Assembly (NCBI GenBank): GCA_021793575.1
Contig: JAJYSM010000001.1
Span: 3,371 to 67,370, forward strand
DNA: 64,000 nucleotides
DNA from: Pseudomonadota bacterium
Lineage (GTDB): Bacteria; Pseudomonadota; Gammaproteobacteria; Xanthomonadales; Rhodanobacteraceae
Direction of reading: 5' to 3'
The notes under the pieces: model-generated
The model's input: the letters and a program-made list of their open reading frames with translations, nothing else
What the model was told of the DNA's origin: nothing
The model's database searches: none
Shown here: piece by piece, positions 41,358 to 48,223 of the stretch
Position numbering within the stretch: the stretch's first letter is position 1
How the letters are laid out: the number at the start of each line of letters is the position of its first letter
Made by a program: the position numbers and the translations under genes

Positions 41358-41594
41358 CGGCGATCCATTGGTCGGAAAGTGCCCAACCTTAGCAACTCCG
41401 CGCCAGCGGCACGACCCGACCCATGGCAGGCGGCATAAGTTCGAGTAGGCCGGATGGCGGTTTATCCGGCGGTGCTGCACTACCCGCCAACGGAGCAGCA
41501 GCGCCACGCAGCAACCTGCGGATACCCGGCACATTGCCTGCAGGCACCCTGCTGACAGCCTCCGCCAGGCTAAAGGCGCACCACGATGCGTCTC

Positions 41595-41623
41595 TTGCCC
41601 GCATGTACTTAAATAGGTACTAT
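41595..41623 (+). promoter_or_regulatory. Sigma-70 promoter with overlapping GTAC-N8-GTAC operator for the RelE/HTH TA pair
   Basis: TTGCCC-17 nt-TACTAT ending 6 nt before GTG 41630; GTACTTAAATAGGTAC imperfect palindrome at 41605-41620. Confidence 0.55.
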
Positions 41624-41629
41624 CGCGGC

Positions 41630-41977
41630 GTGCCAACTTCTCCTCTTCTCGAAGTTCGCTTCTACGCCACGGATGCAGGCCGCGAGCCGGTTCGCGACTG
41701 GCTGAAGTCCCTGATGCCTGACGCGCGCAAGGCGATCGGCGAAGACATCAAGACCATACAGTTCGGCTGGCCCTTGGGTATGCCATTGGTGCGCAAGATG
41801 GAACCGGGATTGTGGGAGGTGCGCAGCACGCTCGACACGGGGATTGCCCGTGTGCTGTTCACAACGGCCGGCCCGGTCATGGTGCTCCTGCACGGCTTCA
41901 TCAAGAAGTCCGACAAGACACCCAAGGATGACCTGAAGCTGGCTCTGCGTCGCGCGAAGGAGGTTCATCATGGCTAA
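41630..41977 (+). CDS. RelE/ParE-superfamily toxin (Gp49/DUF891, HigB-like)
   Basis: FYATDAGREPVRDWL, QFGWPLGMPLVRKM, LWEVRS, VLLHGFIKKSDKTP. Confidence 0.88.
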   Translation: MPTSPLLEVRFYATDAGREPVRDWLKSLMPDARKAIGEDIKTIQFGWPLGMPLVRKMEPGLWEVRSTLDTGIARVLFTTAGPVMVLLHGFIKKSDKTPKDDLKLALRRAKEVHHG

Positions 41978-42263
41978 GCACAATGCTCACATCGGCAGCA
42001 CGCTGGACGATGTTCTCGCCGAGGACGGCGTACTCGAAGAAGTATCGACGCGTGCGATCAAACGCGTGATTGCCTGGCAGTTGCAGGAAGCCATGAGGGC
42101 TCAGGGCCTCACCAAGACGGCGATGGCCCGGCGCATGCACACCAGCCGCTCGATGCTCGACCGGCTACTCAGCGAGACCGACACCGGCCTGACCCTCGAC
42201 ACACTCAGCCGTGCAGCCCAGGCGCTGGGCTACCGGGTGAAAGTGGAACTGGCGGCAGCGTAG
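41970..42263 (+). CDS. XRE-HTH antitoxin (HigA-like)
   Basis: HIGSTLDDVL...KRVIAWQL...GLTKTAMARRMHTSRSMLDRLL...TLDTL; overlaps the toxin by 8 nt. Confidence 0.88.
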   Translation: MAKHNAHIGSTLDDVLAEDGVLEEVSTRAIKRVIAWQLQEAMRAQGLTKTAMARRMHTSRSMLDRLLSETDTGLTLDTLSRAAQALGYRVKVELAAA

Positions 42264-42631: not shown

Positions 42632-42643
42632 GTGGGCTGTGTG

Positions 42644-43150
42644 ATGAGCAATCTGAAACAGACGAAAACAATGCGTAAGGCGGGCCAGAAGGCCTCGTTT
42701 GCAAAGGCCGATCACTCGGTGGCGAACATGGCGCTCGCACAGTCACGCAAGGGCGTCGAGCGGGTGAAGATCGCCCACCATAGCGGCGTCAACGCCCTGT
42801 TGGCGAAATACGCCGACAAGAGGACGGGGAACGTCGTCGTGGACCGGCTGATTGACGGTACCGGATTCACCAAGAAGAACCTGGCGGGCACGCTTGGCAT
42901 CAGTATGGATGCGATGTACCGCCCGGATCGGGTCAACTCGCCCACCACGCAGGTGCGAATGCGCGAGATGCTTGAAATTCTCGGGCGCATCACCGACTGG
43001 GCGGGGGGCGAAGTGCAGGCGATGGCGTGGTACCGAGGCCAACCGATCCCGGCCTTCGGAGGTCGTACCGCCGAGTCCCTGGTCAAGTCCAATCAAGCGG
43101 GGCCATTGCGCGACTATCTGGACCACATGGCCATGGGTGGCTTTGCTTGA
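42644..43150 (+). CDS. Xre/MbcA/ParS-type antitoxin (DUF2384-like)
   Basis: HTH-like core then WAGGEVQAMAWYRGQPIPAFGGRTAESLV...YLDHMAMGGFA. Confidence 0.85.
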   Translation: MSNLKQTKTMRKAGQKASFAKADHSVANMALAQSRKGVERVKIAHHSGVNALLAKYADKRTGNVVVDRLIDGTGFTKKNLAGTLGISMDAMYRPDRVNSPTTQVRMREMLEILGRITDWAGGEVQAMAWYRGQPIPAFGGRTAESLVKSNQAGPLRDYLDHMAMGGFA

Positions 43151-43677
43151 GGTTTGCGGGAAGGGCCTACCGGGGCCATGACCCGCAGTGGGCGTTCGCA
43201 CCGCTGTCGGGTGATGGGGCAGCGGTCTACGGCGGGCGCTTCAATCCAAAAGGTGTTGCCGCGCTGTACCTCGCGCTGTCCCCGACGGGGGCGATCAACG
43301 AGGTGTGCCAGGGTCTTGCTTCCCGCATTGCCCCGATGACCTTGGTCGAATACGAAGTGGATTGCACTGACATCCACGACTTGACGGACGCCGCGGCTCG
43401 CGCTGCGCTGGGGATTGCGAAATCGGACATGGCCTGCAATTGGGGTGATGAGGCCTTGATCGCTGGCAAGACGCCGGCATCGTGGGCGATCGCAACGAGG
43501 CTCATCGCGGGCGGCGCGGCGGGCATCATCGTGCCGAGCTATGCCCAGGAGGCAGCTGCCGATCACCGGAATCTCGTGCTGTGGAAGCGGGGGAACCGGC
43601 GCCCGCATCGTGTCCGGGCCTACGATCCCACCGGCAAGCTTCCCGCGAACCAACTGTCCTGGCCGAAATCTCGGTAG
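43147..43677 (+). CDS. RES-domain toxin (NAD+ phosphorylase family)
   Basis: TTG overlapping the antitoxin TGA; AYRGH (R), GGRFNPKG, AINE (E), IIVPS (S), NLVLW. Confidence 0.87.
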   Translation: MRFAGRAYRGHDPQWAFAPLSGDGAAVYGGRFNPKGVAALYLALSPTGAINEVCQGLASRIAPMTLVEYEVDCTDIHDLTDAAARAALGIAKSDMACNWGDEALIAGKTPASWAIATRLIAGGAAGIIVPSYAQEAAADHRNLVLWKRGNRRPHRVRAYDPTGKLPANQLSWPKSR

Positions 43678-43956: not shown

Positions 43957-43993
43957 TCACCAACAATGCGGTGATAGCGTGCAATCCCAATAT
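43957..43993. repeat. 37-bp direct repeat, copy 2 (coincides with the 3' end of the hypothetical gene)
   Basis: TCACCAACAATGCGGTGATAGCGTGCAATCCCAATAT. Confidence 0.9.
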
Positions 43994-44331
43994 CGGACGG
44001 AACAGAATTTACCGACGAAATCATAGAGCTTGCCGCGGCATGTTAGTGACGCAACCTCGTCTGGCGTGGCAGGCCGCAAACCGAGAAATTCGTGGAAGGC
44101 GATGTCATCGATGGTCGGACCATCACTAAGTTCGTACAGCTCGTTGTAGAGCGTCGGCACGCCGATTTGTTCGGCCACGAAATACTCGTAGCTATCGCAG
44201 GCTCCGCGGATCAACAACTCCAGCTTTTCACTGCACTCGCCGCGCAACAACAGCCGACCGGGCGTGCTGACGTTGTCGGCATCGCCGTATCGATAGACGA
44301 AAACGCTGTGCCGCTTTTCAGCCTTCGCCAT
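43957..44331 (-). CDS. Hypothetical protein (resembles uncharacterised mobile-element proteins)
   Basis: MAKAEKRHSVFVYRYGDADN...YFVAEQIGVPTLY...DDIAFHEF; start overlaps the end of the upstream gene. Confidence 0.65.
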   Translation of the reverse strand: MAKAEKRHSVFVYRYGDADNVSTPGRLLLRGECSEKLELLIRGACDSYEYFVAEQIGVPTLYNELYELSDGPTIDDIAFHEFLGLRPATPDEVASLTCRGKLYDFVGKFCSVRYWDCTLSPHCW

Positions 44332-44611
44332 CGTCATCTTCCTCATGATCGAAGTCGTCGAGGAAGTAGATGGCGTCGCGAAGCTCGTCCGTCCAAGGCT
44401 TTTTAGTCATCACGTAGCCCATGCGGTTGACGATGTGGAAACCGGGCGGCGCGTACCAGTTGCCGTCCTCGTCGGAGCCGGATTCGATAATGGTCCAGAC
44501 GTGGTTGAGCGGTTGATCCTTGACGTCCTCGAACTCAAACATAACGCCGCTGGCCTTCTGGATCACGCCCCAGTCATCCTAAAACTCGTCTTCGCTGATG
44601 GTGTCATCCAT
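44318..44611 (-). pseudogene. Acidic hypothetical protein with in-frame TAG at codon 11
   Basis: GGAAAAGAG-ATG 44611: MDDTISEDEF*DDWGVIQKASGVMFEFEDVKDQPLNHVWT...; TAG at 44581-44579. Confidence 0.65.
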
Positions 44612-44620
44612 CTCTTTTCC

Positions 44621-46666
44621 TCAGCGTGTGGCGGATGTGTCCAGCGTGGCCGAGCGATGCCGGCCGATAAAGGCAAGATCGGGAACGAACCGTTCGGGCA
44701 ATTCGATCTGCTTGTCTTCGATCGACCAAAACACCTCATGCAGGAACGCATCCTTGCTGGCCTTGAGCCGCGCGGACAGCACGATGCGCCAGTCGTCGCT
44801 GAGGGTGAAAAGGTGGCTGTCGAACGCCTTGTCATGGATGGCGGAGAGGCATAGCCCATTGCTTGGGTTGAGTCGGTTCGCCTTATCGGCACTCCACGGC
44901 ACGATATGGCTGGCGACGAGCAGGCGCGTGTCGGAGACGCCGGAGATGCAGCAGCGATCGCGATAGCTACTCAGCACCGCGCGACGAAAGAAGTTTTGCT
45001 TGATGCGCTGCTGCACGAGCGCTTGGCGCGTTTCGCCGGTGAAGTCGGTTAGCGCGATGCCATCGGTCTTCTCGACGGGCATGTCGTCGTTCAGACCATG
45101 CTCGCGCAGCAAGTATTGGCGGAGTTGCTCGCACTCGACGGCGAGTCGTTCCCAGTCGGCATGGAATTCGTTCCAAATCTCCTCGTCGAGGTGGGAGTGA
45201 TTCGTCAAGCCCACCCTTCCGCTCGCAATGATCGCCGGATCCAGACCTGCGAGGTTTCCGCATTTCCTTGCCACCGCACTGGGCGTTCGACCGATGAGTC
45301 TGGCGAGCTCGATGAGCTTTTTGTTCCGTGAGTGAAGTTGCCCAAATGGCGTCTGGCAATAAAAATGAAACGCGAGCTTGGTCTGCTCCGGTGTCCACAG
45401 TCCGCTGCTCGAAAAAGCGTTGGATGAGACGGTGAGCGTGTCGGTCACGGCAGCTTCCTTGGCAATGAGCTTGGAAGCCACACACTTTGCTACCGCATCG
45501 ATCATCGGCACAACCGCCGCTTCGGCGATGAGCTGGTAAGCCTGCGTATCGCTCACCGGTATCTTGAAGCTGTCCGGCAAGCCCATCAGCCGCGCGCACT
45601 CCCGCGGCGTCAGTCTTCGGGGTCGCTTTCGCGCACCCTGCGATACCAGCACTTCCGAGCCGTCCTTGTAGTAGCGGGCGGACAGCGTGCGGGTGACGCT
45701 GTCGCCGTCGACCAGCCCGAAGCCGAAGCCGTTGCCGGCGGCCTTGTGCTTGGCGGCGTAGGTCTGCAGGTAGGTCCACAGGTTGGCGGTGAGCGTGTAG
45801 CGGGCGTCGATCTTCGCCTTCGGGCCGATGGTGTAGTGCGACTCGGGCAGTTCGCTGCCGTCCTGCGGGTGCAGGATGGATTTCAGGCGCGGGCCGTCCT
45901 TGGGCAGCTGCAGGTCGTCCCACGCGAAATCGGTCGGCTCGCGGAAGCCGACGATGAGGATGCGCTCGCGGTGCTGCGGCACGAAGTGCTGGCCGTCGAT
46001 GACCTTGCAGTGGATGTGATAACCGAGGTCTTTTTCCAGCACCTTCCTGATCACGCGAAAGGTGTTGCCCTTGTCGTGGCTGACCAGGTTCTTCACGTTC
46101 TCCAGCAGGAACGCCGCAGGCCGTTTCGCCTTGATGATGCGCGCCACGTCGAAGAACAGCGTGTCCTGCGTCTCGTCGGCGAAGCCGTGCGCGCGGCCGA
46201 GCGAGTTCTTTTTCGACACGCCGGCAATGCTGAAGGGCTGGCAGGGAAAGCCGGCCAGCAGCACGTCGTGGTCGGGGACGTCACGCTCGTCCACCGTGGT
46301 GATGTCGCCGGCGAACGCGTGGGCGGCGTCGGGGAAGTTGGCCAGATAGGTTTTCTGCGCGTACGGGTTCCATTCGCTGGTGAACACGCAGCGCCCGCCG
46401 TGCGCCTCGAAGCCGATGCGGATGCCGCCGATGCCGGCGAACAGATCGATGAAGGTGAAGGCGGCGGCGCCTTTTCCGGACTGCGGCTCCAGTGGCAGCA
46501 GACGCTGGCGGATGGCGTCGACGTGATAGGCCGGCGGCTCGGTTTCACCCAGCTGCCAGCGCCGCACGGTGCGTGCGTTGACGCCGAGCAGATCGGCGAG
46601 CTCCTTCTGCGTGTAACGACCGTGCAGGCTGGCCAGCAGGTGCCGGATGTCTTCCATGAAGTACAT
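44621..46666 (-). CDS. dcm: Fusion: XRE-HTH + Dcm-like C5-cytosine methyltransferase + HNH endonuclease
   Basis: One open frame: TQKELADLLGVNARTVRRW (HTH); DLFAGIGG, GFPCQPFS, ENV, QHRER, RRLTPRECARLMG (C5 MTase); RCCISG...ASHIVPW...NGLCLSAIHDKAFD (HNH_2). Start 46666 or 46657. Confidence 0.88.
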   Translation of the reverse strand: MYFMEDIRHLLASLHGRYTQKELADLLGVNARTVRRWQLGETEPPAYHVDAIRQRLLPLEPQSGKGAAAFTFIDLFAGIGGIRIGFEAHGGRCVFTSEWNPYAQKTYLANFPDAAHAFAGDITTVDERDVPDHDVLLAGFPCQPFSIAGVSKKNSLGRAHGFADETQDTLFFDVARIIKAKRPAAFLLENVKNLVSHDKGNTFRVIRKVLEKDLGYHIHCKVIDGQHFVPQHRERILIVGFREPTDFAWDDLQLPKDGPRLKSILHPQDGSELPESHYTIGPKAKIDARYTLTANLWTYLQTYAAKHKAAGNGFGFGLVDGDSVTRTLSARYYKDGSEVLVSQGARKRPRRLTPRECARLMGLPDSFKIPVSDTQAYQLIAEAAVVPMIDAVAKCVASKLIAKEAAVTDTLTVSSNAFSSSGLWTPEQTKLAFHFYCQTPFGQLHSRNKKLIELARLIGRTPSAVARKCGNLAGLDPAIIASGRVGLTNHSHLDEEIWNEFHADWERLAVECEQLRQYLLREHGLNDDMPVEKTDGIALTDFTGETRQALVQQRIKQNFFRRAVLSSYRDRCCISGVSDTRLLVASHIVPWSADKANRLNPSNGLCLSAIHDKAFDSHLFTLSDDWRIVLSARLKASKDAFLHEVFWSIEDKQIELPERFVPDLAFIGRHRSATLDTSATR

Positions 46667-46685
46667 TCTCGCTATGGGATAATAT

Positions 46686-46702
46686 GCGGCCAGTCTGTCC
46701 GC
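46686..46702. promoter_or_regulatory. 17-bp near-palindrome upstream of the HTH-MTase (putative autoregulatory site)
   Basis: Minus strand GCGGACAGACTGGCCGC directly before TATTAT (46684-46679), about 20 bp from the ATG. Confidence 0.5.
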
Positions 46703-46790
46703 TTTATTTCCCTTTTTCAAGTGCTCCGACAGATGGCCCGGGGCGGAATCAGCCGACCTGATTGGTGTCGAACCTCAGCACACCACCGAT

Positions 46791-46922
46791 CCGGTTCCCG
46801 CCGAGCCCTTCGACGGGCTCAGGACAGGCGTAGCTTGCGCAAGCAAGCGAAGTCCGGTCGAAGCGCTGAATGGTCGATGCCCTTCGACTTCGGCGCTACG
46901 CGCCTGCGCTCAGGGCGAACGG
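46791..46922. repeat. Degenerate REP-like palindromic element (CCCTTCGAC...GCTCAGG type)
   Basis: Two CCCTTCGAC...GCTCAGG units (46806, 46880), with a left arm partly complementary to ...GCTCAGGGCGAACGG. Confidence 0.55.
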
Positions 46923-47044
46923 TGGGAGGCCCAGCTGAGGTTGGGCGCGAATAAGGTCAGCCGATGACGCTGCCCCGGATTTTTGCCAGAGAGTTCACCA
47001 TCAAGGCTGAAACCCTCACTTGCAGTGAGGATTATTCCTCTCTT

Positions 47045-48223
47045 TCAAGACCTGGTCTGCAGCTCGGCATCCATCGGCGGCCATGTACCCGCGGTACTGC
47101 GCTGTTGGTACCAACGATGCATCGCGGCGTCATCCACCGCGTATTCGCCGCGGGCGGATTTCCAGACCAGCGAGGGCATGTGCTGGCGCAGGCTTTCGAG
47201 CGCGCTTTGCGCCTGCTGCGCCGTCACCCGTTTGCCGGTTTTGTGGTGGTAGAAGCGTAACGCCTCGGCATCGTAGGGGCGAAAGCGCTGCGACTGTTCC
47301 AGCAACCGCCACAGCACGGCGCGTTCAAGTGGCTTGAGGCCGATGAAGTCGGATTCCATCTGCGCTTCGTCATCGCGCTGCCGCTGGTTGGCGGCCCCGA
47401 GTACCGCCGGTTCAAAGCGTCCGGCCGTGCCGGAGAGTGGACTCAAGGCTTGCCCCAGCGCCTCCATGAAAAACTGTGGCCGCTGGCCGAATTGACGAAA
47501 GGCCTCGGCAAGCATCGGTGCATCGACAGGACGCAGATCCGGCCGCTGTGCTTCGACCAGCCTGGCGATATGGTCGATGAAGTCCTCACCAAGCTCCGGC
47601 ATGCGCTGGATCTGCGAGCCGTAGAACGGCGCACCGTTGGTATGCACCAGGCGCAGCAACTTGTCCCGATCGGAGCCGGACATCACCAGCATCAGGTTGA
47701 CCTTGCCCGGCGCATTGAGCTGGTCGCGCGCGGATTTGAGGGCCGCCATGACCGCTTCACCCGCCTCACTGACCAGCGCGTGCTGCGCTTCGTCAATCAG
47801 CAAGGCCACCGGCACCTTCGCCGCGTCATGCAGGGCGCGCAATGCATCCGGCAGGGTGGTGCCGTCCGCGCGGCCAATCCTGCTGACGTCAATCTTCAGC
47901 GCGCCGGCAACATTGACGCTCTCCAGCCCGGACGCCTTGGCGGCTCTGGCCACCAACCCAAGATGCGGCTGGAGTGCACGGCCCACGGCATCCGCGATGA
48001 GGCTGCCCGGATCACGACGCTGATCGGACCAGAGATCCACATACACCACGATCATCCCCTGACGCTCCAGCTCAGGCTTCAGATCGGATTGCAAAAACGT
48101 GGACTTGCCGGTGCGGCGCGGGGCAGCAAGAAACAAGCCGTTGTGCGCGTCGCCGAAAATATCCTTGCCCTGCAAGGCCCGCGCAAGCTGGCGCGCCAGC
48201 TCAGTCCGAGGGAAATGGAGCAT
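47045..48223 (-). CDS. P-loop ATPase with C-terminal winged-helix-like region
   Basis: LAAPRRTGKST Walker A, LLIDEAQ Walker B, VMSGS, C-terminal AQSALESLR...LVWKSARGEY. Confidence 0.82.
   Translation of the reverse strand: MLHFPRTELARQLARALQGKDIFGDAHNGLFLAAPRRTGKSTFLQSDLKPELERQGMIVVYVDLWSDQRRDPGSLIADAVGRALQPHLGLVARAAKASGLESVNVAGALKIDVSRIGRADGTTLPDALRALHDAAKVPVALLIDEAQHALVSEAGEAVMAALKSARDQLNAPGKVNLMLVMSGSDRDKLLRLVHTNGAPFYGSQIQRMPELGEDFIDHIARLVEAQRPDLRPVDAPMLAEAFRQFGQRPQFFMEALGQALSPLSGTAGRFEPAVLGAANQRQRDDEAQMESDFIGLKPLERAVLWRLLEQSQRFRPYDAEALRFYHHKTGKRVTAQQAQSALESLRQHMPSLVWKSARGEYAVDDAAMHRWYQQRSTAGTWPPMDAELQTRS

Follow-up and report, generated by a model that had tools for sequence, protein, structure and literature searches.

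Cytosine-C5 methylases of the M.SsoII, M.Ecl18kI and M.EcoRII type consist of an N-terminal helix-turn-helix (HTH) followed by a Dcm-like domain, and a palindrome of the GGACA-N3-TGTCC type lies in front of their genes. The regulatory site of M.SsoII is the 15-bp AGGACAAATTGTCCT, which is bound by the N-terminal domain, repressing the protein's own gene (PMC6100179). Another group of proteins, which includes the EVE-HNH protein VcaM4I, the SRA-HNH protein TagI, ScoMcrA and wH-HNH enzymes (SruGXI), comprises two-part nucleases of ~230-310 amino acids (aa), with a small N-terminal DNA-binding domain and a C-terminal HNH_2 module that carries an upstream R-x-x-Q-x-FR helix. These nucleases are usually found without a cognate methylase. 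HNH_2 nucleases also occur together with a methylase, as in BbrI, HphI, AlwI and the operon of the Thauera plasmid pTha01 (an m5C methylase for BbrI and pTha01), and in Type IIC restriction-modification (RM) enzymes nuclease and methylase share one polypeptide. In this study, we analyzed a gene that has features of all these systems. It is located in a 64,000-nucleotide (nt) stretch of DNA, hereafter the window, from a member of the Rhodanobacteraceae (assembly GCA_021793575.1, contig JAJYSM010000001.1, positions 3,371 to 67,370), and codes for an HTH, a C5 methylase and an HNH_2 nuclease in a single chain. The fused proteins form a conserved family, and the nuclease half also occurs, intact and under selection, in loci that have no methylase. 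No description of a C5-methylase-HNH fusion, and hence of this family, was found in the searchable literature.

The gene occupies positions 44621..46666 of the window on the minus strand and, read from the ATG at 46666, has 681 codons plus a stop (681 aa). The open reading frame extends over 44621-46720 (699 open codons from a TTG), and an alternative ATG at 46657 would give a 678-aa protein that begins with MEDIRH, as does the closest homologue, of the same length. The predicted start is ATG 46666 or 46657, not the upstream TTG, because a conserved operator (46686-46702) falls inside the TTG extension. At the N-terminus, residues 10-50 (46517..46639) give weak HTH_23, HTH_3 and Xre-like matches, all of which score under the gathering thresholds; in alignments, this segment corresponds to the regulator region at the N-terminus of Dcm/EcoRII-type methylases from plasmids. 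The C5 methylase domain follows at residues 70-394 (45485..46459; Pfam DNA_methylase, PF00145, E value 1.4e-80), and then a linker, residues 395-418 (45413..45484), where the start codon of stand-alone relatives is located. The C-terminal part is composed of a helical, HTH-like predicted DNA-binding domain, residues 419-530 (45077..45412), and an HNH_2 nuclease module, residues 531-675 (44642..45076), with the Pfam core at residues 572-622 (44801-44953; E value 7e-13). All of these features lie on the minus strand. NCBIfam PRK10458 (Dcm-like) covers residues 6-401 and the PADLOC model MTase_II (Type II methylase, PDLC03361) residues 14-402 (E value 2.5e-144), and the 286 positions of the PADLOC model 'HNH' (PDLC04132) were matched full length at residues 406-675 (E value 1.9e-104), with an additional match to PDLC03546 (E value 2.2e-35).

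These results bear out the architecture that a first-pass annotation, made from the letters alone, had described. The frame of about 680 codons is unbroken, and the segment between linker and nuclease is modeled entirely as helices. The Dcm/EcoRII-like methylase carries the anticipated PC, ENV and QxRxR motifs, within GFPCQPFS (residues 139-146), LLENV (187-191) and QHRER (231-235), as well as DLFAGIGG (74-81). In the nuclease, the motifs ASHIVPW (585-591), NPSNG (600-604) and IHDKAFD (610-616) supply the predicted catalytic residues H587, N603 and H611/D612, i.e., the H, N and H noted earlier. The absence of an adjacent vsr or separate restriction gene also holds: Vsr (PF03852) had no match in the fused protein or anywhere in the 3.2-Mb genome (99.8% complete), and there is no separate restriction gene. 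The fused gene is the sole C5 methylase of this genome. The nuclease is predicted to be a His-Me finger enzyme and not a member of the Vsr fold or family.

Homologues were searched for among 5.8 billion proteins. At least 120 clusters, with 60-90% identity, contain both Pfam domains in proteins of ~675-690 aa. Their carriers are Gamma- and Betaproteobacteria, including Rhodanobacteraceae, Lysobacteraceae, Pseudolysobacter, Gallionella, Thiobacillus and Dechloromonas/Azonexus; Pseudolysobacter antarcticus and Dechloromonas denitrificans ATCC BAA-841 are carriers in culture. The first-pass annotation had considered that close homologues might have a stop or frameshift between methylase and nuclease; because these clusters share both domains at similar length, the fusion, judged by its homologues, is real and not an assembly artefact, and the unusual single-chain architecture of HTH, methylase and HNH stands. 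Both halves are under purifying selection: the ratio of nonsynonymous to synonymous substitution rates (dN/dS) is 0.04-0.12 across the methylase half and 0.02-0.15 across the nuclease half. The gene is sporadic, being present in 8 of the 401 genomes of the order.

The nuclease half corresponds to a complete stand-alone protein. Residues 406-681 (276 aa) align end to end with stand-alone 'HNH endonucleases' of 272-276 aa (65-77% identity), and a broader HTH-HNH_2 family of ~255 aa is found in many phyla (at least 7992 clusters among 8000 candidates scored). Two family genes may stand in tandem, as in L123:3033-4783 (with a 4-nt overlap) and L006:7348-8824. The closest solved relative of the HNH module is VcaM4I (PDB 6yex; E value 9e-9 with a single sequence and 1.2e-24 with a profile), and TagI was the only meaningful fold match of the nuclease half. 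When the whole nuclease half was modeled with AlphaFold, the predicted local distance difference test (pLDDT) score of the HNH core stayed under 50, and searching with this fold was uninformative. The N-domain (residues 419-530) modeled alone gave an all-helical bundle (pLDDT 86, predicted template modeling score 0.79), whose Foldseek matches to MarR, LysR, Myb/SANT and homeodomain DNA-binding domains were weak, with none significant in PDB; a profile search of PDB with this domain found no relative. Thus, the nuclease half shares with the VcaM4I/TagI group its size, two-part plan, R-x-x-Q-x-FR helix and usual lack of a methylase, but differs in its all-helical N-domain, for which the searches gave no resemblance to an SRA, EVE/PUA, DpnI-type winged-helix or SBD domain.

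We then surveyed 80 genome loci that encode a homologue 58-87% identical to the nuclease half. Of these, ~27 were fused, and ~47 were stand-alone with no methylase within 5 kb. Remnants of the methylase lie beside an intact nuclease in six loci, five of the 80 and one from Rhodanobacter glycinis that came from a separate look-up. In R. glycinis, a decayed in-frame C-terminal stub of the methylase is next to the nuclease; in another locus (L031), an in-frame deletion joins the HTH straight to the nuclease; and the remaining ones have shorter stubs. A metagenomic protein is likewise composed of the HTH, the first 79 methylase positions and the HNH. In a maximum-likelihood tree of the nuclease half (86 loci), fused and stand-alone forms interleave with 21 changes, at least 13 of which are forced by well-supported branches, whereas the fused methylases group together in one clade, apart from plasmid methylases (support 97). 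This combination fits one fusion followed by many losses. The stand-alone nucleases (60-77% identity) are intact and under purifying selection with no adjacent methylase (dN/dS of pairs, 0.09-0.17). Moreover, no match to PF00145 was detected in two nearly complete genomes, G291 and G119, both of which keep the nuclease. Since the nuclease is kept after loss of the methylase, the latter appears not to be needed for host protection.

The trees of the two halves branch differently within the main clades, which suggests recombination between them. The methylase in the window is 96% identical to that of L013 and the nuclease only 87%, the nuclease being closer by path to L014. No Dam-family gene was found in six host genomes, a count that is not taken as evidence for or against Dam dependence.

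The pattern of an intact nuclease beside a reduced methylase recurs in more distant loci. One distant member (L122) has a 142-aa methylase fragment, then HNH, then a GHKL (paraMORC-like; for comparison see PMC2292703) ATPase and Vsr. In Neisseria gonorrhoeae, an insert between pheS and pheT (L127, 3950-5741) contains Vsr, then a methylase stub of 133 aa and, intact, a nuclease of the family (249 aa). This is the NgoAXIII remnant locus (pheS-V.NgoAXIII-truncated M-ORF-pheT), in which an HTH-HNH_2 protein of the family, 40% identical, comes immediately after a truncated C5 methylase and adjoins a Vsr. It differs from the fused gene in having separate genes and a methylase reduced to a stub of 112-133 aa, reported inactive; the methylase is truncated in all 25 strains studied and was experimentally inactive in FA1090, and the HNH gene of the locus is not discussed (PMC6789123). 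In Dokdonella/Lysobacterales, an 807-bp insert (L035:4105-4911) distinguishes one locus from its ~98% identical fused sister (L037). The insert supplies a canonical methylase 3' end and a real vsr, converting the fused gene to an M-V-HNH arrangement with the nuclease as a separate open reading frame. A fused-type motif-X remnant remains in frame 5' of the nuclease in this locus.

With regard to the methylase half, an operator-like inverted repeat, GCGGACA-GAC-TGGCCGC (GCGGACAGACTGGCCGC; minus strand, 46686..46702), sits 20-30 nt 5' of the start codon and has one mismatch to the SsoII-type GGACA-N3-TGTCC. It is the only match to the motif within the window. In two proteobacterial classes, fused homologues have the motif GGGACAAAAAGCGGACA-N3-TGTCCGC conserved upstream of the gene, and its half-sites and spacing agree with the SsoII site given above. 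Because of this agreement, the N-terminal HTH is a predicted autoregulator of the SsoII/Ecl18kI type. The 'XRE HTH' of the first-pass annotation therefore remains an N-terminal HTH, but is better described as such an autoregulatory domain with its operator.

Methylase motifs I (FxGxG), IV (PC), VI (ENV), VIII (QxRxR) and IX are intact, and at least 115 of 120 fused homologues have them as well. Motif X is non-canonical: residues 378-387 (45506-45535) read QLIAEAAVVP, compared with RQFGNSVVMP in plasmid relatives, and the canonical GN(S/A)V occurs in none of the 120 fused homologues, which have F(A/S)xAAV where plasmid relatives have FGNSV. The Asn position varies among the fused proteins (Q, D, E, H, R, G). 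The change may influence AdoMet binding or may be an adaptation to the fusion. Because GN is also missing from motif X of certain active methylases, among them Dnmt3, the fused enzymes may still be active. Thus, compared with M.SsoII, M.Ecl18kI and M.EcoRII, the fused protein retains the HTH, the Dcm-like domain and the upstream palindrome, but adds ~280 C-terminal residues (HTH-like plus HNH_2) and has lost the motif X GN.

The nearest non-fused methylases are plasmid dcm genes, with 60-64% identity including the HTH. On Aeromonas and Pseudomonas plasmids, dcm is followed by vsr and then by an EcoRII-C-type restriction gene, and on Thauera pTha01 by vsr and a gene for an EcoRII-N+HNH_2 restriction protein. 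The fused locus, unlike these EcoRII-like systems, has neither vsr nor a separate restriction gene. As M genes of dcm-vsr-EcoRII-like operons, these relatives make CCWGG the likeliest predicted target, with CCNGG possible. A footprint of the target site gave no usable signal: the observed/expected ratio of CCWGG is 0.76 here, compared with 0.83 in a congener lacking C5 methylases, and deamination products of CCWGG were not enriched in this comparison. Other sites are depleted. GGWCC is the most under-represented palindromic 5-mer (0.47 in the own genome, G000, and 0.53 in G291), and G000 also strongly avoids CTAG (0.21) and CTCGAG (0.27); none of this is related to the fused gene.

Most fused and stand-alone nucleases are followed by a small gene, with a gap of less than 15 nt or an overlap (ATGA). 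At least four unrelated partner families were found (A, B, an A-B fusion, C and D), with no Pfam or PHROG match. In the window, gene A (minus strand, 44318..44611) codes for an acidic protein, and its ancestral ATG (44611) is 9 nt past the nuclease stop. At 44579-44581, a stop in frame takes the place of a conserved Trp (EDEF*DDW, compared with NEFWDDW in relatives), and the frame is open again from GTG 44566; gene A may be a pseudogene here, or may be translated from the restart. Gene B (minus strand, 43957..44346; 129 aa, 'YRDASNYK' family) overlaps the end of A, and in R. glycinis the two are joined as one 211-aa protein. Neither had a match in Pfam, PHROG, NCBIfam or PADLOC. Family B also adjoins SauUSI-like PLD-helicase-DUF3427 genes in two Xanthomonadales genomes, where the B gene is divergent from a 1029-aa PLD-helicase-DUF3427 gene (L096:841-4393 and L098:774-4346) and no homologue of the family nuclease was detectable beside it.

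Our preferred explanation, tentative and held at slightly less than even confidence, is that two machines which can be separated make up this composite gene: an autoregulated methylase and a defence nuclease that is self-safe, Type IV-like and paired with a small partner. By analogy with the SsoII paradigm, the HTH would bind the GGACA-N3-TGGCC palindrome upstream and set the level of the whole protein. The methylase domain would place 5-methylcytosine (5mC) on CCWGG or, less likely, CCNGG. The C-terminal part would be an autonomous nuclease, in which the helical HTH-like domain is combined with a catalytic HNH_2 module of the VcaM4I/TagI kind, and comparative genomics indicates that the host chromosome is kept safe without reliance on the fused methylase. 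This nuclease would most likely be Type IV-like, cutting DNA with a mark that the host lacks, other than Dcm-type 5mC, or it may be subject to a different kind of gating; its probable partners are the coupled, variable small downstream protein(s). The proposed origin is one fusion, at a place where relatives carry vsr and/or a restriction gene, with the methylase half then lost many times. The parts of this proposal are not equally strong. It is likely that the nuclease does not depend on the methylase in the manner of classical RM. That it is specifically modification-dependent is a more doubtful suggestion; the similarity of the HNH module to modification-dependent enzymes, its closest relatives, was counted in favor of the Type IV-like reading. 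Modification-dependent enzymes of related wH-nuclease architecture have been documented beside non-conflicting C5 methylases (PMC11037411). A generic 5mC-dependent nuclease was ruled out by the fusion to a 5mC methylase itself.

Several observations weigh against this composite. Neither sequence nor fold searches linked the N-domain to SRA, EVE/PUA, DpnI-type winged helix, SBD or NEco readers. The HNH_2 group also holds the classical enzymes AlwI, HphI and BbrI, which have protective methylases (m5C in BbrI; PMC5714182, PMC5829577), the nuclease occupies the 'R' position in several C5-methylase operons, and PADLOC files it among RM nucleases. The Type IV view also leaves the conserved fusion to a methylase in many lineages unexplained. 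Furthermore, stand-alone hosts carry unlinked amino-methylases, the only kind found in G291 and G119, which leave some room for protective methylation in trans; we consider such protection unlikely.

A classical one-gene 5mC RM system had been one of three suggestions of the first-pass annotation. Following Type IIC/IIG logic, the HNH would cut unmethylated CCWGG-type sites, and the methylase half would protect them and possibly recognize the site. Restriction and modification in one conserved polypeptide, with both halves selected and with both the MTase_II and HNH models of PADLOC matched, agree with this proposal, as do the methylase relatives in true EcoRII-like RM operons, one of which has an EcoRII-N+HNH_2 nuclease, and the example of BbrI, an HNH_2 enzyme with an essential m5C methylase. 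The methylase, however, has been lost at least 13 times with the nuclease retained under selection, its remnants adjoin intact nucleases, and two hosts have no C5 methylase at all. A nuclease held harmless only by cognate methylation cannot persist after loss of the methylase, and this sets the family apart from Type IIC enzymes and from BbrI, whose methylase is essential, whereas that of the fused family is dispensable for keeping the nuclease; BbrI, HphI, AlwI and pTha01 also differ in having other recognition domains and separate genes. In addition, the own genome contains ~11,000 CCWGG sites, and a relative free of C5 methylases is similarly rich, so that an unprotected CCWGG cutter would be lethal. 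We therefore disfavor the single-chain RM system and regard it as unlikely. A single-chain 'methylate-or-cut' enzyme, in which the Dcm-type domain would give the HNH its site, or recognition of a mismatched or flipped base, and stand-alone nucleases would be targeted or gated by variable partners, is quite improbable. Two further proposals of the first-pass annotation, a methylase serving as targeting module and a guard, received no support from anything computed.

The small downstream genes raise the possibility of a toxin-antitoxin or abortive infection system, in which a small protein of family A, B, C or D would hold a weakly specific HNH DNase in check until infection frees it, and the methylase would be an optional passenger. 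The tight coupling of a small gene to most fused and stand-alone nucleases and the strongly acidic character of protein A fit this idea, and the surrounding low-GC islet also holds HigB/HigA-like and Xre-RES pairs. Yet at least four unrelated partner families beside nucleases of 60-90% identity are unexpected for a specific inhibitor, some loci have no detected partner, gene A in the window has an in-frame stop next to an intact nuclease, and the partners match no known immunity or antitoxin family; we judge such a system to be quite unlikely. An HNH-type analogue of Vsr, nicking T:G mismatches that arise by 5mC deamination, perhaps guided by the methylase, is very unlikely. It is true that vsr directly follows dcm in the nearest non-fused operons and that the HNH sits at that place, and that the own genome and 16 of 19 other fused-gene genomes have no Vsr. 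Nevertheless, stand-alone copies are maintained under selection in genomes that have no C5 methylase, and thus where there is no 5mC. Moreover, one locus (L035) gained a real vsr between methylase and HNH, HNH and Vsr coexist in Neisseria and in L122, and the sporadic spread within the order agrees better with a mobile gene for defence than with one for repair.

The fused gene lies in a low-GC islet at ~41.0-48.3 kb of the window (GC content 0.57-0.66, compared with about 0.70). The two toxin-antitoxin-like pairs of this islet, Gp49/HigB-like plus HTH (HigA-like) and Xre(MbcA/ParS_C)-RES, are located at 41423-42263 and 42632-43677, respectively. Two Gallionella/Nitrosomonadales loci (L061 and L086) likewise have a Gp49+HTH pair just 5' of their fused gene. 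An upstream AAA_22 ATPase gene (47045-48223) was considered as a partner and rejected for lack of conservation: in the closest relative, the fused gene is found at the same site, beside an RND pump gene, with different DNA in place of the ATPase, which is thus not part of the system. The 330-nt spacer 5' of the fused gene contains a perfect 12-bp palindrome, GCTTGCGCAAGC (46834-46845), and other hairpins; a stem-loop at 47014-47030, right after the ATPase gene, looks like the terminator of that gene.

The fused family is common in Gamma- and Betaproteobacteria, and the source names examined give only 'DNA (cytosine-5-)-methyltransferase', so that the nuclease half has been overlooked. Members of the ~255-aa HTH-HNH_2 family repeatedly adjoin C5 methylases and repeatedly outlive them, which is the reverse of the 'orphan methylase' that is the usual outcome of RM decay. 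If the improbable 'methylate-or-cut' mechanism were true, the fused protein would be the first 5mC counterpart of Type IIG enzymes, and the family would be able to switch between methylase-coupled and methylase-free defence. Finding the substrate of the nuclease would clarify a common but unassigned class of defence-island genes, would explain the gene left over in the gonococcal NgoAXIII locus and could perhaps lead to new modification-sensitive or modification-dependent reagents.

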